26,490 nucleotides of DNA from an uncultured Weeksellaceae bacterium (GCA_964585605.1 CAZPEQ010000001.1:1-26490); one strand, 5' to 3'; numbered from the stretch's first letter, positions 8,356 through 15,138 are shown. Numbers and translations are program-made. The notes: a model not told the origin generated them from the sequence alone.

Positions 8356-10800
8356 TTAATCTTGCTGGCTTTTTTCAGCTTCGTCTCCTTTCTTCCGCTT
8401 CCGACGGCCGTAACCGTAGCCGTAACCATAGCCATACCCGTAGCCACTGCCGTAACCATAAGCATAGCGGTATCCATAACCGTAGTTGGTATTGTAATAG
8501 TATTTTGATTTCTTGATGCGCACCCCGTTCAGTATAAAGCCAAAGTTCTGCACCGGGTTTTGCTCAAACACTTCTAGGGCATTCTTCAAATGATCCTTGC
8601 TGGCGAAACGCGTATTGAGAACGAACATGGTCGCATCAGCATGTTTCATCATGATCAACGCGTCTGTTATCAAACCTACAGGAGGGGTATCGATGATCAC
8701 GTAATCATACACTCCCACGCCGTACTCGAATATTTCCTCTAAGTGCTTACTCAAAACCAATTCAGACGCATTCGGGGGAGTTGGTCCTGACAACATCACA
8801 TCGAAATTCTCAATATGTGTGTTTTGGATACCACTTTCGATAGAAGCCTTACCGACCAGAATACTGCTTAGCCCTTTTTCAGCCGTCATATTCAACCCTT
8901 TACTCACCTTGGGCTTATGTAAGTCTAACTCAAGCAACAAGACCTTCTTTCCTGCTTTAGCAAGGATGGCACTTAGGTTTACTGAACAGAAGGTTTTTCC
9001 TTCATTCGGTCTATAGGAGGTTACGAGTACCACCTTTCCACGCGACCGATCGGTTGGGATATACTCCAAATTTGTGCGGATCGTCCTGAAGGATTCTGTA
9101 ATGGCGGCCTTGGGGTCACTGTCCACAACAATGTAATTCTGCTCAGCTTTTTCAGAGGCTATCACTTCTCCAAACAACGGCACATTTGACAGTTCTTTCA
9201 ACTGATCGCCATTCTCAATCCGCTCATAGAACATGACCCGAATGAAAATAAAGATGAGTGATAGAAGCAAACCTCCTATTGCAAACGTGTAGATGATTTT
9301 TACGCGATCCGGTCTTACCACACCAACAGAACGTGCAGATTCGATCACTTTCGTCTGTGGAATGATACCTGCTCGTGCAATGACTGTATTCGCACGCTTC
9401 TCAAGTAGAAATAGGTACAACCGCTCATTCACCTGCACCTTACGCTGTATCTCTAAGATATCACGTTGTGATTTAGGCACTCTTCGAATCAGTCCCTCAT
9501 AATCAGATATCTGTCCAATTAAGTCACCGATCTTCGCATTAATGGCAATTCTAGAATTGTTGATATACACCAACAAATTGGTCTTATTAAGATCCAATGT
9601 TTCGTCCAGCACATGAATAGCTGGGTTCTCTTCCTTCGCATCGAACAACAGCCGATTACGCTCCAATTGCATAGCGTACAGGTCATTCAACGTTGTCTTC
9701 AGGAACACGTCGTCGTCGAGGATATAGGCTGAAGGTGGTAACAACTTTTCATCCACGTTATTGGTCAAGTATTCTTCCAACGAATTGAGCGAGGCTATTT
9801 TTAGTTCTTCCCTACGCTTCTCGTTATCAAAACGCACGAGTTCTCCAAAGTACCGGTTCTCCTCTCGGTCTAGGTCGAGGATATCCTCGCTCTCTTTGTA
9901 TGACTGCAATTCATCTTCAAAATCATTCAAGATGATACTGACCTCATCGATCTGTTTGTTGATATAGACCAAGGTATTTTCGTTGATATCGAACTCACTC
10001 TGCAAAGTGTAGTCGATGTAAACCTTGGAGAGCGAATCCAGAAAAGTCTTCGCCCTGCTCGCAAGCTCATCTTCAACGGTAATTTCAAGGATAGTTGTAT
10101 AGTCTATGTTCTCCACAAGCAACCGCTGCTTGAATTTATTCACTAGCCATCCGCGGTTATGCGCGACGAACTGGTAGTCCGCTTTGGACAGCTCTTCCAT
10201 CGTAGAGGGAGAGATCTGCTCGCTTGGGGTCACCCTCAGTTTAAAGTCCCTTTCTACTATGTCTTGGTTAAACGGATAAACTTTATTGATCACGCCATTC
10301 CCTTTGTCATAACTCAACTCGAAATGATTCACATCCTTTATTTTCAGGTCGAATGGCTTCTGGTACAAGCCGCCATTCAGTCGCTCTACTTGAACTTTGA
10401 AGGGCAAGGATGAATTTTTCTCCTCATACATCTCGGTCGTTTTGAACCGACCGATGTTGTAATAAGCCACATCAAAATTCAGTTTGGCCAACGTAGCCCC
10501 GATAAGGTCATGGCTGGTTAGCACCCTTTTTTGGTTAACGATATCGCCATAAGCACCGATATAACCAATGTTCTGATAAACTTGGCTCTGGTAATTATAC
10601 GTATCTCTATCCTTCAACAGAATCTGAGTGCGAGCACCGTAAACCTCAGGAAGTTTATAGGAATACAACAGACTTAGCACAATGGCCAATATGATCGCAA
10701 TGACCACGAAATACCAATTTTTCGAAAAAATCCGAAAAAAGTACCTCAGGTCACCTGCATCTATGATCGCGCCTTTGGAGCGGTTACTTTTCTTTGCCAT
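8356..10800 (-). CDS. wzc: Wzc-type polysaccharide co-polymerase / BY tyrosine kinase (814 aa)
   Basis: Two TM segments (WYFVVIAIILAIVLSLLY; IIYTFAIGGLLLSLIFIFI) flank a coiled-coil periplasmic region. Also ESFRTIRTNL, Walker A TSYRPNEGKT, Walker A' LELDLHKP, Walker B VIIDTPP and a C-terminal Tyr cluster. Start moved to ATG 10800 (MAKKSN) because the track's TTG at 10848 falls inside a -7 promoter box. Confidence 0.93.
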   Translation of the reverse strand: MAKKSNRSKGAIIDAGDLRYFFRIFSKNWYFVVIAIILAIVLSLLYSYKLPEVYGARTQILLKDRDTYNYQSQVYQNIGYIGAYGDIVNQKRVLTSHDLIGATLAKLNFDVAYYNIGRFKTTEMYEEKNSSLPFKVQVERLNGGLYQKPFDLKIKDVNHFELSYDKGNGVINKVYPFNQDIVERDFKLRVTPSEQISPSTMEELSKADYQFVAHNRGWLVNKFKQRLLVENIDYTTILEITVEDELASRAKTFLDSLSKVYIDYTLQSEFDINENTLVYINKQIDEVSIILNDFEDELQSYKESEDILDLDREENRYFGELVRFDNEKRREELKIASLNSLEEYLTNNVDEKLLPPSAYILDDDVFLKTTLNDLYAMQLERNRLLFDAKEENPAIHVLDETLDLNKTNLLVYINNSRIAINAKIGDLIGQISDYEGLIRRVPKSQRDILEIQRKVQVNERLYLFLLEKRANTVIARAGIIPQTKVIESARSVGVVRPDRVKIIYTFAIGGLLLSLIFIFIRVMFYERIENGDQLKELSNVPLFGEVIASEKAEQNYIVVDSDPKAAITESFRTIRTNLEYIPTDRSRGKVVLVTSYRPNEGKTFCSVNLSAILAKAGKKVLLLELDLHKPKVSKGLNMTAEKGLSSILVGKASIESGIQNTHIENFDVMLSGPTPPNASELVLSKHLEEIFEYGVGVYDYVIIDTPPVGLITDALIMMKHADATMFVLNTRFASKDHLKNALEVFEQNPVQNFGFILNGVRIKKSKYYYNTNYGYGYRYAYGYGSGYGYGYGYGYGYGRRKRKKGDEAEKSQQD
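8407..8502 (-). repeat. (Tyr-Gly)n low-complexity tail of Wzc
   Basis: Encodes YYYNTNYGYGYRYAYGYGSGYGYGYGYGYGYG, 15 Tyr in 32 codons. The DNA is an imperfect 6-bp repeat (TAY GGN). Confidence 0.95.
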
Positions 10801-10845
10801 GCAGTTGAAAAGAAAGCCGAGCTCATAGTAGAACCCGGCAGCGTG

Positions 10846-10853
10846 CAAATATA
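10846..10853 (-). promoter_or_regulatory. Bacteroidetes -7 box (TATATTTG) for the wzc-wzm-wzt-sulfotransferase operon
   Basis: Plus-strand CAAATATA is an exact TAnnTTTG on the minus strand, 45 bp upstream of ATG 10800. Confidence 0.6.
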
Positions 10854-10943
10854 CGTTTCTTCATATGTTTTGCCCCTAAAGTGACCCTTGAATGGAATCT
10901 TCGTCTTAAACTTGTTTCCAACCTACAGATGAAATGGCGAATT

Positions 10944-10981
10944 TGTAGAAATTCCAACCTTGCTTCAGCAAAATTTCTACA
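10944..10981. repeat. Perfect 10-bp inverted repeat (TGTAGAAATT-N18-AATTTCTACA); candidate operator
   Basis: Arms at 10944-10953 and 10972-10981. The right arm overlaps the -7 box at 10978-10985. Confidence 0.55.
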
Positions 10982-10985
10982 TTTG
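10978..10985 (+). promoter_or_regulatory. Bacteroidetes -7 box (TACATTTG) for the PID-CTERM/exosortase cassette
   Basis: Exact TAnnTTTG 18 bp upstream of ATG 11004, which supports that start over the track's 10881. Confidence 0.65.
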
Positions 10986-11003
10986 CCCCCTGAGTGCGCT
11001 AAC

Positions 11004-11225
11004 ATGAACAGGAAAAGTAAGCTTTTAGCTTTAGTAGCAATGCTAATAGCTCCTGCTACGTACATAGCTACAATGGCCCAAGGAGGCCCTCCTGTAGGAG
11101 GAACACCGCCTTGCTGGCCACCGCCTTGTATACCTATTGATGGGGGATTGGGCTTCTTGCTGGTAGCGGGCGCTGCTTTTGGTGCTAAAAAAGTGATGGA
11201 CCTGAAGAAAGGGTCAACCAAATAG
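11004..11225 (+). CDS. Small secreted protein with a PID-CTERM-type sorting signal (73 aa)
   Basis: MNRKSKLLALVAMLIAPATYIATMA|QGGPPVGGTPPCWPPPCIPIDGG-LGFLLVAGAAFGA-KKVMDLKK: signal peptide, Pro-rich spacer, PIDGG motif, TM helix and basic tail. This is the tripartite PEP-CTERM-like layout, and it lies 8 bp upstream of an exosortase. Confidence 0.85.
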   Translation: MNRKSKLLALVAMLIAPATYIATMAQGGPPVGGTPPCWPPPCIPIDGGLGFLLVAGAAFGAKKVMDLKKGSTK

Positions 11226-11233
11226 GTCTGGAG

Positions 11234-11770
11234 GTGCTCCGTGACCCTCTGTCTAGATTTCTTTTTTACCTAGGAGCGTTCGTGCTCCTCTGGTTTCTAC
11301 TATACAAATTTGTGCTTGACCCGTCGGGTAGATTGGATTTGTGGCTTATTGACAGAATCAAGGCACAATCAGAATGGCTACTTCAGTTTTTAGGTTATCA
11401 GCTACTACCTGAATCATCTAATGTAGAAGGCGACCGCTATATTGGTATACAGGGAGGGCATTACCTGTGGATTGGAAATTCATGCAATGGCCTGAGCATT
11501 TTCGCATACTTCTCTGCTTTTATCTTGGCCTTCCCTGGCAGCTGGAAGCATAAACTGTGGTTCATGCCACTCGGCATTCTCCTTATTCATGGTGTGAACG
11601 TTATTCGAGTGGCCGCGTTGTGCATTGTTGTGAAAGTGGATCCGGATCTGCTGAGTTTAAACCACGACGCCATCTTCTACATCGTCGTATATAGCTTTGT
11701 TATTGGGCTTTGGTTCTGGTGGGTAAAGCAATACGGCAACCTGAAAGCCGAGTTACGCGATGAAACGTAA
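11234..11770 (+). CDS. Exosortase-family protein (Bacteroidetes XrtF/XrtX-like)
   Basis: Multi-TM protein with the exosortase/archaeosortase catalytic pattern: WIGNSCNGL (Cys), VNVIRVAAL (Arg) and NHDAIFY (His). The exact subfamily cannot be assigned without HMMs. Confidence 0.88.
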   Translation: MLRDPLSRFLFYLGAFVLLWFLLYKFVLDPSGRLDLWLIDRIKAQSEWLLQFLGYQLLPESSNVEGDRYIGIQGGHYLWIGNSCNGLSIFAYFSAFILAFPGSWKHKLWFMPLGILLIHGVNVIRVAALCIVVKVDPDLLSLNHDAIFYIVVYSFVIGLWFWWVKQYGNLKAELRDET

Positions 11771-12224
11771 TATTCAATTAGCGGGGTTGTTGATAGCAGG
11801 CTTTTTATTGGGCCACGCTAGGGAGTTTTTAGCGTACAACGTCAATTACCAGATCGATCACGTTTCGCGCAACACCCCTTTTTCGTACGCGCACTCAAAA
11901 TTCCAAGCTGTATTCGGCTCATTGAACATAACTCAACTTACTGGCCTAAAGTGGTTCATCGCTGGAGTCGTGGTTCTGGGTATGCTGTCGTTGACTGTAA
12001 TATTGGGCCGCGTATTGTTCAACGGTGGCAAATACACTAAAATGTTAGTCGCTGGCTATTCGTTGACCGCATTTACCGCTTTATTACTGCACCTACTGAC
12101 CAATTACAATGAAGGGTTCAAAATGGCAGGGGTACAACTACTACACGCCTTGCAATACCCTGTTTTGATGTTCGTGTTGATATTGGCTTCCCCGCTGGCG
12201 AAGTTCAGTCGACCCACAACCTAA
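11760..12224 (+). CDS. Exosortase-associated 4-TM membrane protein
   Basis: Start overlaps the exosortase 3' end by 11 nt. Four hydrophobic segments, including [16 protein letters not shown]. Small membrane partners commonly follow Bacteroidetes exosortases; function unknown. Confidence 0.7.
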
Positions 12225-12247: not shown

Positions 12248-13522
12248 ATGAGCAGAGACACTACGATTTTCAACCTGATCGAGCAGGAACGACATCGTCA
12301 AACGGTTGGCGTAGAGCTAATTGCATCGGAGAACTACGTTTCTGACCAAGTTATGGAAGCCATGGGTTCCGTGTTAACCAACAAATATGCCGAAGGGCTT
12401 CCCAACAAACGCTATTACGGTGGCTGTCAAATAGTTGACCAAGTGGAGCAACTCGCCATTGATCGAATCAAAGAATTGTTCAATGCCGATTGGGCCAATG
12501 TGCAACCTCATAGCGGTGCGCAGGCGAATGCCGCAGTCATGTTAGGTTTCCTTAACCCGGGAGACACCATTTTAGGCTTTGACCTCAGCCATGGCGGACA
12601 CTTAACCCATGGATCTACGGTGAACTTCAGCGGCAAGTTGTATCGGCCAACCTTCTACGGCGTAGAAAAAGACACGGGGTTGATCGACATGGATCGAGTT
12701 GAGGCCATTGCCAAGCAGGAGAATCCGCGGATGATAATTTGCGGAGCTAGTGCCTATTCCAGAGATTGGGATTATGAACGGTTCCGGAGCATTGCCGATG
12801 AAGTGGGAGCCGTATTGTTAGCCGATATCAGTCATCCCGCAGGGTTGATCGCTGGAGGTATTTTGAAAGACCCTCTTCCGCATTGTCATGTGGTCACAAC
12901 CACAACACATAAAACCTTACGCGGGCCTAGAGGAGGCCTGATCATGGTTGGAAAAGATGGGCAGAACAGTTGGGGCATCAAAACGGCAAAGGGTACTGTG
13001 CGCAAGATATCATCGATACTAGACAGTGCCGTTTTTCCTGGGACTCAAGGAGGACCCTTGGAGCATGTAATAGCAGCCAAAGCCGTGGCGTTTGGAGAAG
13101 CGCTAACACCTGCCTACCGCGCCTATTGTGTACGTGTGATCGCCAATGCACAAGCCATGACCAAGGCATTCGTTGCAAAAGGTTATCACGTGATCAGCGG
13201 TGGAACGGATAACCATTGCATGCTGATTGATCTGCGCAATAAAGGAATCACGGGCAAGGAAGCTGAAACTGCACTTGTGGCGGCAGACTTGACCGTTAAC
13301 AAGAACATGGTTCCGTTCGATGACCAGAGTCCTTTTGTGACAAGCGGTATACGTATTGGAACTCCTGCTATAACCACCCGCGGGGTGAATGAAGCGGAGT
13401 GTGAGCAGATCGTAGATATGATCGACCGTGTTGTGGTAGATCATACGAATGAATCTGCAATAGCGGCCATACGGGAGGAAGCGAACCAATTGATGAAGGA
13501 CAAACCCCTGTTCCTGCCTTGA
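12248..13522 (+). CDS. glyA: Serine hydroxymethyltransferase
   Basis: [41 protein letters not shown] and [14 protein letters not shown] (PLP Lys), plus [17 protein letters not shown] and SGIRIGTPA. Confidence 0.98.
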
Positions 13523-13902
13523 GAGACATTGAATCCAGAGAAGACCTCACCCACGTTCTGACCGCATTCTATGCCAGAGCCTTTGAAGATGACCTGATCG
13601 GCCCATTCTTCACGGAGGTGGCGCAACTCGACCTTGACGCACACCTTCCTGTTATCACAGATTTTTGGGAGTCGATACTATTCGGATCCGTCCGTTACCA
13701 AGGCAACGTCATGCACAAGCATTTGGTAATGGATAAAACGAAGATCATGAAGCAGGCCCACTTCGACCGATGGCTAGATCTATTCTCTAATGCGCTAACA
13801 GCGCATCATGCGGGTATGAAAACAGACGAAATGTTGGAGCGCGCAAAACTCATTGCCGTGACAATGGCCTATAAAATCGAAGCTTTTCGGAACACCAACT
13901 GA
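13519..13902 (+). CDS. Group III truncated hemoglobin
   Basis: [38 protein letters not shown] and HFDRWLDLF match the 2/2 hemoglobin group III pattern. TTG start overlaps the glyA stop. Confidence 0.88.
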
Positions 13903-14686
13903 CCAACTGACCCAGTTTTGCCAATGTCCTCTCCGACATCCAAATGGTGTAGCAAGCCATGAAGGCCAAGGCCATATCGGGAATTTCCACTGCATAAGCT
14001 GTTCCCAAATGGAAGCACACCCCAATCAGCAACACGGCGTTCCTGATTGCTTTGAACCAGATCCCGACAACAAAAAACAACTGAAAGCCTAGTGACACAT
14101 AGGTCAGTATGATTGCTAAAGTGGGTAGCTCTTGTAGAAATCCTAAATGAAAGGTAGGATCTGAAGCCAGCACGGAAAGCGCTTTTCCGCTGAGCCAATC
14201 CTCGCCTTGTAGTTTATGCAGGAACGTGCTTAAATAGACAAGCACCAGCTGCAACCGGGCTGCCCATGATGCGAATTGTCTTATTCTTACATGTTCATTT
14301 TGACGAAGGGAAAGTGGAATGCACCACAACAGCATGATCGCTACCAACTGCTGCCCTCCGGTGCTTACCATCCATCCTCTCGCGATCAAAATCACGTAAG
14401 CGCCCCATATCAGAACCGAGGTCCAGACCATTGGTTTCCGCAAGGCCGAATACCCAGCAGCAGCAATACCACAAAACGGCAGGGCAATCCAAAATCCCAA
14501 AGGCATGCTGTAAGCGAGATCCACCAGCCACGAAATCGGCCCTCCTGAAAACTGTAAGCGCGGTGAAACGGGATCAAACCACAGTTTACCCGAAACGGTC
14601 AAACAATAACTCAAGAACAACGCGGTCCACAAATGCAAGGCCCTAACGAAGAGTTTCTGTGCCTGTATGCTTACCTGAGGAATCAT
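13850..14686 (-). CDS. HTTM-domain membrane protein (SdpB / vitamin K-dependent carboxylase TM-domain homolog)
   Basis: About seven hydrophobic segments. RLQLVLVYLSTFLHKLQGEDWLSGKAL and GVCFHLG follow the HTTM Q...Y......K...W..G and FH pattern. Start overlaps the upstream stop (ATGA). Confidence 0.82.
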   Translation of the reverse strand: MIPQVSIQAQKLFVRALHLWTALFLSYCLTVSGKLWFDPVSPRLQFSGGPISWLVDLAYSMPLGFWIALPFCGIAAAGYSALRKPMVWTSVLIWGAYVILIARGWMVSTGGQQLVAIMLLWCIPLSLRQNEHVRIRQFASWAARLQLVLVYLSTFLHKLQGEDWLSGKALSVLASDPTFHLGFLQELPTLAIILTYVSLGFQLFFVVGIWFKAIRNAVLLIGVCFHLGTAYAVEIPDMALAFMACYTIWMSERTLAKLGQLVSWCSEKLRFYRPLSRQ

Positions 14687-15138
14687 TCCTGATCGAGCGC
14701 ATCAATCCAAAGAACACGCTGACCATCTATTTCATCAAAACAGGTCCTGCGCACGTGAACTTCAGGTCTCTCCTGCTCTGTTAAGGCACGTATGTAATCT
14801 TGAAACCCTGGCCACGCCTTAAGATCAGCTTCTCCTTTGGCAGAGTCACGATAATTAGACATGCTTCTGCACCCCCATTTTACAATACGCCTGCCCAGCA
14901 GATTCTCTCCTTCTGCAAGATCTCGGGTAACACCTTCCTCATCTGTAATCGTCAAAGTGCATCCACATGGCGGAACATCTGGCGCAAATAAATTCCATTG
15001 CTGATGAAATAAGGGTCGTGTATAGCTTGTTGACCAGAACTGTAGCCGTGCAGGAATCAATTCTTGTGGCAAGGCATAACACGCTAAGATCAGCGTATGT
15101 ACCAATGCCAAGATGAACGGCCAATTCTTCTTCCACAT
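14683..15138 (-). CDS. DUF5819-like / SdpA-like small membrane-anchored protein
   Basis: N-terminal hydrophobic segment then YTRPLFHQQWNLFAPDVP. The QxWxLFAP motif is recalled for small partners that precede HTTM genes. Translationally coupled to the HTTM gene. Confidence 0.72.
   Translation of the reverse strand: MWKKNWPFILALVHTLILACYALPQELIPARLQFWSTSYTRPLFHQQWNLFAPDVPPCGCTLTITDEEGVTRDLAEGENLLGRRIVKWGCRSMSNYRDSAKGEADLKAWPGFQDYIRALTEQERPEVHVRRTCFDEIDGQRVLWIDALDQE

Follow-up and report, generated by a model that had tools for sequence, protein, structure and literature searches.

The window analysed here, a stretch of 26,490 nucleotides from an uncultured Weeksellaceae bacterium (GCA_964585605.1, CAZPEQ010000001.1:1-26490), contains at 11004..11225 on the plus strand a micro-gene that encodes a protein of 73 residues plus stop codon, with a PID-CTERM sorting signal and no passenger domain. 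The assignment rests on a match to the NCBIfam model NF046080, on 88 small homologues, and on purifying selection at the codon level. It is followed on the same strand by the genes for exosortase X (XrtX) and for a further membrane protein, and a polysaccharide export locus lies on its other side. We propose that the micro-protein is probably a dedicated, cargo-less substrate of the neighboring exosortase. The original prediction, made from this DNA without database searches, had described a sorting-signal protein with almost no passenger, and both the NF046080 match and the lack of a passenger among the homologues bear this out.

Results

A conserved micro-gene with a short reading frame

The start codon is the ATG at 11004-11006 and the stop codon the TAG at 11223-11225. 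The product reads MNRKSKLLALVAMLIAPATYIATMA|QGGPPVGGTPPCWPPPCIPIDGGLGFLLVAGAAFGAKKVMDLKKGSTK, or, resolved into its parts, MNRKSKLLALVAMLIAPATYIATMA-QGGPPVGGTPP-CWPPPC-IPIDGG-LGFLLVAGAAFGA-KKVMDLKKGSTK. Without the first 25 residues and the part that begins at D46, what remains is QGGPPVGGTPPCWPPPCIP, 19 residues with 8 prolines, Cys37, and Cys42; the coordinates, the core of about 19 residues, its proline count, and its cysteine pair are thus as originally described. A mechanical open reading frame (ORF) call at 10881-11225 begins with GTG and yields 114 residues, exceeding the micro-protein by 41. Comparison with relatives marks this excess as a false N-terminal extension, as had been proposed, because the homologues, which are 66-75 residues long, start at the equivalent methionine and because a promoter-like box sits inside the extension. 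This box, TACATTTG (10978..10985, plus strand), conforms to the Bacteroidota-type -7 element TAnnTTTG and would be expected to act as a promoter; it precedes the ATG by 26 nt, in the intergenic region that separates the micro-gene from a divergent Wzc-like gene. Of 76 related loci, 57 have a TAnnTTTG element at 12-60 nt ahead of the short start (median 35 nt), where a six-base motif would be expected by chance in roughly 1% of cases. Scans for sigma-70 promoters, terminators, Rfam families, and tRNAs returned nothing relevant.

The codon pattern speaks directly to the coding status of the gene. Among 80 distinct nucleotide cores, both cysteines, three prolines, and the Pro and Asp of the PID motif are invariant, while TGC and TGT, all four proline codons, and GAT and GAC are all freely in use. 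Because the residues are fixed while synonymous codons vary, CWPPPCIPIDGG is under selection at the protein level in the micro-gene frame. The same analysis rules out both the antisense ORF at 10823-11221 as a real gene and the micro-gene as a spurious ORF. We conclude from these comparisons that the 73-residue micro-gene is a genuine, conserved protein-coding gene.

Architecture of the micro-protein

Residues 1-25 (11004..11078, plus strand) have the appearance of a signal peptide, both by inspection and in an AlphaFold2 prediction on the family alignment, which places a helix at residues 3-24, coil at 25-45, and a second helix at 46-72 (predicted local distance difference test score, pLDDT, about 91 on the last). 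The n region is MNRKSK, the h region LLALVAMLIAPA, and the c region TYIATMA, with a visible A-x-A-like site, TMA|Q; these regions and the site are kept in the homologues. Signal peptidase I is predicted to cut after Ala25, exposing Gln26. A glutamine at +1 of the mature protein, which had been anticipated, fits the Bacteroidetes Q-rule for secreted proteins (PMC5837995; PMC10653852), and an [AGSC]-Q junction follows the hydrophobic core in 90 of 149 family representatives (~60%). No lipobox of the form L-x-x-C occurs at the end of the signal peptide, the first cysteine being residue 37, 12 residues past the predicted cut; with no cysteine at +1 of a signal peptidase II site, processing as a bacterial lipoprotein by the Lgt/Lsp pathway was rejected.

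The predicted mature protein opens with a Pro/Gly spacer, QGGPPVGGTPP (residues 26-36; 11079..11111, plus strand), that differs in length and sequence among homologues. Across the family the spacer is 36% proline and 19% glycine, and any serine or threonine occurs in only 55 of 90 spacers. Thr34 is not conserved: most relatives have proline there, GGPPPC being the usual form, and the early suggestion of a glycan carrier acting through its single threonine therefore fails. Next come CWPPPC (residues 37-42; 11112..11129, plus strand), in the nucleotide-core alignment an invariant cysteine pair around WPPP, and a candidate disulfide loop within a longer putative recognition signature, and IPIDGG (residues 43-48; 11130..11147, plus strand), the PID signature located by the NF046080 alignment, which abuts the transmembrane helix; its Pro and Asp are invariant in the 80 cores, and Ile and Val interchange. 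Hydrophobicity, AlphaFold2, and the NF046080 match all point to a Gly/Ala-rich transmembrane helix, LGFLLVAGAAFGA (residues 49-61; 11148..11186, plus strand), which is followed by a basic, presumably cytoplasmic tail, KKVMDLKKGSTK, with five lysines and one aspartate (11187..11222, plus strand). A cluster of Lys and Arg in this tail is conserved in all homologues.

A family of proteins without cargo

The C-terminus of the micro-protein scores 38.3 bits on NF046080 (PID_CTERM; cutoff 26, E 8e-10), residues 44-64 aligning with positions 2-22 of the 25-position model. This is its sole NCBIfam match at E <= 1, and the PEP-CTERM model (TIGR02595) is not matched. Pfam PF28310 (PID_CTERM) is precomputed on the micro-protein (P0001) and on all homologues, and some relatives of 72-73 residues carry the GenBank name 'PID-CTERM protein-sorting domain-containing protein'. 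The system is therefore already catalogued, with curated models for the tail, the exosortase, and the third gene (NF046080, NF046081, and NF046082) in addition to PF28310; by its profile matches the locus belongs to the curated PID-CTERM/XrtX family as an ordinary representative, and its novelty had been overrated. A full-text literature search found no paper naming PID-CTERM or XrtX in this sense, and no experimental work on the system appeared in the searchable literature.

How far the absence of cargo extends was assessed in several samples, all of whose relatives come from metagenome-assembled genomes (MAGs) or metagenomes of uncultured environmental Bacteroidota. The 88 proteins retrieved by a word-indexed search are all small and show almost no variation in PPCWPPPCIPIDGG; such a search favors shared words, and independent sampling through the neighboring XrtX was added. 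A HMMER profile of 63 members, run against 1.84 billion cluster representatives, gave 1820 matches at E <= 1e-3, of which 131 reached E <= 1e-10. Among the 1820, the best 150 are all 53-130 residues long, the longer ones reflecting mis-called starts or ends. A second profile of 42 columns, weighted toward the tail and including members that lack cysteines, gave 6162 matches, of which the best 120 are all 56-74 residues long; 115 of the 117 new proteins among these 120 contain CWPPPC. A tail-only profile hidden Markov model run over all ORFs in 821 kb of XrtX flanks found nothing besides micro-genes, and no passenger domain occurs on any PID-CTERM member among the 88 candidates, the best 150, or the best 120. 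The top-scoring members thus appear to be uniformly cargo-less micro-proteins, in a family that runs to thousands of clusters at 90% identity and occurs in no fewer than 246 species-level genomes.

These samples bear on the view that PID-CTERM is an ordinary sorting signal with many targets, of which the present gene would be the shortest or a degenerate member, with large proteins elsewhere in the genome being the true XrtX substrates. NCBIfam does treat NF046080 as a generic 'domain' model with CWPPPC outside its span, and tail-only matches on large proteins could lie below the best matches listed. We nevertheless give this view little credence: no large protein was found among the 88 word-sharing candidates, the best 150 representatives, or the best 120 tail-profile matches, nor any large PID protein in the 821 kb around XrtX genes, and the micro-gene is positionally fixed and under strong purifying selection, and therefore no remnant.

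The paired cysteines

CWPPPC is invariant in 79 of the 80 nucleotide cores, with all synonymous codons used, and the lone exception is CIPPPC. The conserved signature reads C-[W/F/Y/I]-P-P-P-C and then at once [IV]-P-[IV]-D-G-G; the pair directly precedes PID and lies outside the span of the curated NF046080 model, which starts at [IV]PID. Conservation of the tail with loss of the Cys/Pro core would have argued against a functional core peptide; the core is in fact kept at least as strongly as the tail. In the best 150 cluster representatives, at least two cysteines occur within the 18 residues before PID in 136, none in 12, and a single one in 1. The spacing is mostly 4 residues and ranges from 3 to 8, with CFPPPC, CIPPPC, CWEPEC, and CGGPFGPVC among the forms. 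Because the cysteines are present both or not at all and their spacing is flexible, we infer that they form a disulfide loop, as first suggested, and not a fixed metal site.

Three observations concern departures from this pattern. A Cys-less PID-CTERM subfamily (L090, L093, L094, L095; P0206, P0232, P0222) has an acidic Pro-rich spacer followed by [IV]P[IL]DGG and scores 44.8 bits on NF046080, above the window protein; its micro-gene comes after a large DUF8202 or LTD protein with a type IX secretion system (T9SS) tail, and its partner is a divergent XrtX-like enzyme (144 bits, under the cutoff). One protein, P0088, lacks exactly CWPPP (PPPCIPIDGG), as slippage between two PPPC repeats would produce, and at locus L070 (3536-3755), on a polished long-read contig, a frameshift falls in the same C-rich run; either may be an assembly artefact.

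The WPPP of the loop (W38-P41; 11115-11126) has a further potential consequence. In E. coli, WPPP groups with the strong stalling XPPP motifs that depend on elongation factor P (EF-P) (PMC4176338), and it serves as an arrest peptide (PMC11669330). By analogy, translation of the micro-gene, and perhaps that of the coupled xrtX, may depend on EF-P. One could go further and regard the ORF chiefly as a translational-arrest leader whose WPPP stall, possibly relieved by Sec-dependent pulling on the signal peptide, tunes xrtX; besides the documented stalling motif, the combination of a Sec signal peptide with an 8-nt gap to xrtX resembles the SecM/MifM layout. Such a leader would leave the invariant cysteines, the PID motif, the transmembrane helix, and the basic tail unexplained, however, and distant members keep the cysteine pair while losing PPP (CWEPEC, CGGPFGPVC). 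The stall site also lies about 95 nt from the xrtX start, and stalling could be a secondary property and not the function. We regard an arrest leader as hardly probable.

Exosortase X and its near-obligate neighbor

XrtX (11234..11770, plus strand) is a protein of 178 residues with a GTG start that lies 8 nt past the micro-gene stop codon. It scores 174.5 bits on NF046081 (cutoff 170), 92.8 bits on the XrtF model (cutoff 90), and 54.7 bits on the TIGR04178 signature (cutoff 23). Cys84 (11483-11485), Arg125 (11606-11608), and His144 (11663-11665) are invariant in seven diverse XrtX sequences and are predicted to form the Cys/Arg/His catalytic triad of exosortases and archaeosortases. Sequence searches of the PDB with XrtX and with the third gene product gave no match.

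The cassette of micro-gene, xrtX, and third gene was present in all six loci reached through diverse micro-protein matches. For a survey seeded on the enzyme alone, a three-sequence XrtX alignment was scanned against one genome per species of GTDB, the seven-sequence alignment having no stretch conserved enough for a genome scan. This yielded 246 relatives; 80 loci were fetched, all from Bacteroidota MAGs (Flavobacteriales, Cryomorphaceae, Salibacteraceae, Bacteroidia), and 77 of them had enough upstream sequence. An intact C-x-PPP-C-x-P-[IV]-D micro-gene lies directly upstream on the same strand in 73 of the 77, at a median of 32 nt from the XrtX match. In one further locus (L070) the copy is frameshifted, and another (L088) has it in inverted orientation some 0.6 kb downstream. 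With few exceptions, the gene that precedes xrtX is the micro-gene. One MAG contains two complete cassettes with different micro-proteins (L023, JADKFY010000018; L032, JADKFY010000020), each by its own Wzc-like gene; either its genome has two exopolysaccharide (EPS) loci or the bin is mixed.

This near-obligate adjacency fits a dedicated exosortase substrate, a role already contemplated in the original prediction. One-to-one adjacency and tight operon packing are also seen with enzyme subunits, and the micro-protein might never be cut: it could be a permanent single-pass subunit or a pseudo-substrate in the XrtX active site, or bridge XrtX, the third protein, and Wzc, and so regulate or scaffold export. 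There is no cargo to deliver, the Gly/Ala-rich helix has a small-xxx-small spacing suited to helix packing, and AlphaFold2 confidence is highest on this C-terminal helix. We consider an uncut subunit unlikely, given that the micro-protein retains every element of a cleavable tripartite signal and passes the PID-CTERM cutoff, that XrtX keeps the full Cys/Arg/His set, needless for a pure scaffold partner, and that conservation is strongest on the periplasmic side of the helix, where cleavage would be expected.

The third gene (11760..12224, plus strand) overlaps the end of xrtX by 11 nt, which together with the 8-nt gap makes the packing operon-like, and encodes a putative XrtX-associated membrane protein of 154 residues, so assigned by positional conservation and a weak NF046082 match; it follows xrtX in 59 of the 80 loci. 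Its alignment of 52 homologues has invariant polar residues (R21, N27, N29, Y30, Q31, D33, H45, K64, W65, H129, and Q132) and no cysteine, and AlphaFold2 predicts six helices (pLDDT 94.2). A fold search of the PDB gave no analogue, the best hit having an E value of 2.5. A DsbB/VKOR-like thiol oxidase was considered and rejected, on the lack of both a cysteine and a PDB fold match. The protein may be an uncharacterised membrane enzyme or binding partner.

Several side observations concern gene order around the cassette. The gene for serine hydroxymethyltransferase (SHMT; glyA; 12248-13522 in the window) follows the cassette in 43 of the 80 XrtX loci. In the Cys-less variant the cassette itself includes it, after the micro-gene and the membrane protein gene and ahead of the exosortase gene (L094, 6708-7982; L095, 2881-4155). 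The association may reflect functional linkage or merely old synteny. In the more distant XrtX loci (L064, L068, and L073-L086, at about 600-3750), the Wzc-like gene and the micro-gene are separated by a gene for a protein of 880-1030 residues. Six of these proteins were scanned, and four match Por_Secre_tail (T9SS); that of L073 matches no family and that of L082 only G8. In L078 (1879-3936) and L087 (769-3867), where the micro-gene is absent, a large protein with no Pfam match is encoded directly before XrtX, and the L087 protein has, by eye, a T9SS-like C-terminal sequence.

A polysaccharide export locus

The Wzc-like gene (8356..10848, minus strand; probable true start ATG at 10800) is transcribed divergently from the cassette and encodes a chain-length determinant and tyrosine autokinase with a Tyr-rich C-terminus, which partly matches the models for XrtA-associated kinases and chain-length proteins. 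It is accompanied by genes of an ATP-binding cassette (ABC) exporter, Wzm (7467-8342) and Wzt (6211-7470), and beyond these by two sulfotransferases, a GT2 glycosyltransferase, a formyltransferase, a DegT aminotransferase, and WbqC; to the right of the cassette lie SHMT and housekeeping genes. A Wzc-like gene occurs within 4 kb upstream of XrtX in 69 of the 80 XrtX-seeded loci. The cassette is linked to polysaccharide export loci of the Wzc type, and EPS loci that encode such kinases are the general setting of exosortases (Haft 2006 and 2012, as represented in papers citing them).

Three features of the surroundings stand apart from the cassette itself. The gene content of 861-8342 (mostly minus strand) suggests a sulfated, N-formylated amino-sugar polymer exported by an ABC transporter yet accompanied by a Wzc-type kinase. 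The C-terminus of the Wzc-like protein (8356-8480) is a Tyr/Gly repeat of unusual length, YYYNTNYGYGYRYAYGYGSGYGYGYGYGYGYG, with RRKRKK after it; for a bacterial tyrosine kinase (BY-kinase), this tyrosine cluster is very extended. Between SHMT and an FAA-hydrolase gene, an HTTM-domain membrane protein (13850-15138, minus strand; 30.9 bits, above the cutoff) is encoded beside a small ORF that matches DUF5819 below the threshold; L007 and L008, which are syntenic, lack this pair.

The conserved neighbors of the micro-gene are XrtX, a membrane protein of about 150 residues, Wzc/Wzm/Wzt, and often SHMT; tailoring enzymes of the radical-SAM, YcaO, lanthionine, or similar kinds are missing from the conserved cassette, as is a dedicated exporter. 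The designation as similar to a ribosomally synthesized and post-translationally modified peptide (RiPP) therefore holds in the loosest sense only, no RiPP-type modifying enzyme being conserved beside the gene. What is encoded here also informs the idea that XrtX simply hydrolyses the tail and frees a Pro-rich peptide of about 20 residues with a disulfide loop, which would be a RiPP broadly defined and act as a diffusible signal or bioactive molecule. The small size, the blockable N-terminal glutamine, and the absence of a passenger are in keeping with this idea, and CX4C loops resemble those of many stable secreted peptides. Yet the conserved cassette has neither receptor, immunity gene, dedicated exporter, nor RiPP-type enzyme; its conserved partner is a polysaccharide co-polymerase and kinase; and the peptide would still have to cross the outer membrane from the periplasm. 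Its core is invariant over thousands of lineages, whereas signals and antimicrobials usually diversify. A released peptide strikes us as quite improbable.

Discussion

Our analyses describe a conserved, cargo-less micro-protein whose gene sits almost obligatorily before that of an exosortase and beside a polysaccharide export locus. We propose that it is a dedicated substrate of the XrtX encoded 8 nt downstream, within the PID-CTERM/XrtX system, and put the probability of this reading at roughly 60%. In the model that we envisage, the precursor would be exported by Sec and cut by signal peptidase I after Ala25, probably with cyclisation of Gln26. The C-terminal helix would tether the peptide in the inner membrane, its lysine tail remaining cytoplasmic, and a disulfide between the two cysteines would close a loop of 6 residues on the periplasmic face of the membrane. 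For XrtX, hydropathy and the positive-inside rule suggest an N-in topology, in which Cys84 would lie at the periplasmic start of helix 2, Arg125 near the periplasmic end of helix 3, and His144 in the following periplasmic loop. This would place the triad on the same membrane face as the CWPPPC-IPID-GG of the tethered substrate. By analogy with related enzymes, XrtX would recognise this extended sequence, remove the helix and tail, and pass the peptide of about 20 residues via a thioester to an acceptor. The precedent of archaeosortase A (ArtA) would point to a membrane lipid, and that of PorU, which acts on T9SS cargo, to an amino sugar of the neighboring polysaccharide. The mature product would be pyroGlu-GGPPVGGTPPCWPPPCIP(ID), with or without an adduct. 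Lipid anchoring, tail cleavage, and pyroglutamate, all raised at the outset, are analogies here.

In the absence of cargo, the functional product must be the short looped peptide. Most likely it would serve as a cap, primer, or anchor for the exported polysaccharide, or form part of the machine that exports it. A more far-reaching proposal, which we hold tentatively and consider doubtful in its full extent, is that XrtX matures solely this one cargo-less peptide, cutting at CWPPPC-IPID and joining the looped, Pro-rich peptide to its acceptor. If the acceptor is a membrane lipid or an amino sugar of the polysaccharide that the ABC transporter exports, the result would be a peptide cap or anchor on a surface glycan; in members without the blocking glutamine, the peptide's own N-terminus could serve instead, giving a macrocycle.

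Several points weigh against a dedicated substrate. Two of the 77 loci (L078, L087) have no micro-gene within 4 kb, and their enzyme is still XrtX by NCBIfam. The paired cysteines are absent from ~8% of family representatives, so that the loop is not essential family-wide. The third gene matches NF046082 only weakly (20 bits, cutoff 75), and its positional equivalents in other loci show the same weak match. Large proteins sharing only the PID tail would rank below the matches listed and may exist beyond the 821 kb of flanks scanned. Finally, the mechanistic steps of the model, among them cleavage, disulfide, pyroglutamate, and attachment, all rest on analogy.

What does the comparison with known systems contribute? 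Within the curated PID-CTERM/XrtX family, the window tail scores above the NF046080 cutoff and the next gene above that of NF046081, and the third gene is a weakly matching positional equivalent of NF046082; the curated tail model, starting at [IV]PID, does not contain the CWPPPC pair of the window protein. Another related system is PEP-CTERM with exosortase A (EpsH/XrtA), from EPS-producing Gram-negative bacteria, with which the window shares a tripartite C-terminal signal (a Pro-containing motif on a transmembrane helix, then basic residues), a polytopic exosortase with Cys, Arg, and His, and an EPS locus with a Wzc-like chain-length determinant and tyrosine kinase. Unlike PEP-CTERM, the window motif is PID and the PEP-CTERM model is unmatched. 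PEP-CTERM marks many proteins per genome, often large and rich in Ser and Thr, whereas XrtX is accompanied by one tiny cargo-less protein, and at about 180 residues XrtX is smaller than XrtA.

For the action of XrtX, the only experimental model is the homologous ArtA with its PGF-CTERM substrates, which has the same Cys-Arg-His triad and is needed in Haloferax volcanii for removal of the C-terminal helix and lipid attachment (bioRxiv 10.1101/2023.06.07.544157). ArtA differs in being archaeal and in its large S-layer glycoprotein substrates and prenyl-derived lipid, and lipidation in the window would be an analogy only. The closest named relative of XrtX is XrtF, from the same phylum and likewise built on a core of small exosortase and small membrane partner. 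XrtF and its partner are both required for biofilm formation and surface colonisation in Flavobacterium (PMC10936215), and its substrates are still unknown (PMC12188702); unlike XrtF, XrtX has an obvious candidate substrate encoded immediately upstream.

Other sorting systems offer partial likenesses. The invariant-Cys signals of the myxosortase type place one or two conserved, non-adjacent cysteines directly before the transmembrane helix, as in the window, which raises the alternative that the CWPPPC cysteines are modified instead of disulfide-bonded. Signals of that type have CPBP/Rce1-like proteases as partners and occur on many large proteins, whereas the partner in the window is an exosortase; no CPBP-family (Rce1-like) protease occurs in the window or in the conserved cassette. 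In Bacteroidota, PorU joins the new C-terminus of T9SS cargo to an amino sugar of a surface polysaccharide (PMC7468200). The phylum is the same, and the neighboring locus of the window makes amino sugars (DegT, formyltransferase, WbqC), but enzyme, signal (an Ig-like domain of ~80 residues), and membrane (outer) are unrelated or different, and the likeness is one of analogy. RiPP precursors, finally, share with the micro-protein ribosomal synthesis, a length of tens of residues, probable proteolytic maturation and a disulfide, and a position beside a processing enzyme. Unlike them, it has a Sec signal peptide in place of a leader read by cytoplasmic enzymes, and its core is invariant, not hypervariable.

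What is the relevance of so small a substrate? Exosortases were predicted in 2006, and we know of no bacterial exosortase for which the cleavage site, the chemistry, or the acceptor has been established. The existing models already cover the tail, the exosortase, and the third gene; we add that the top-scoring members are cargo-less, that they contain an invariant paired-cysteine element, that the position before xrtX is almost obligatory, and that the cassette is tied to Wzc loci, some of which may be in the curators' notes. The XrtX cassette is the simplest test case, with one enzyme, one invariant substrate of about 48 mature residues, and no cargo, and could serve as a minimal model of exosortase action. 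Its product is small enough for intact-mass analysis, which could reveal if exosortases act as genuine transpeptidases and which acceptors they use. If a looped peptide is indeed joined to an acceptor, it would constitute a new class of exosortase-made peptide conjugate, and this would be the first system to let mass spectrometry read the cleavage site and acceptor of an exosortase directly. Because the family is large and tied to polysaccharide export, surface glycans of Bacteroidota may commonly contain the PID-CTERM product as a component that has gone unrecognised.

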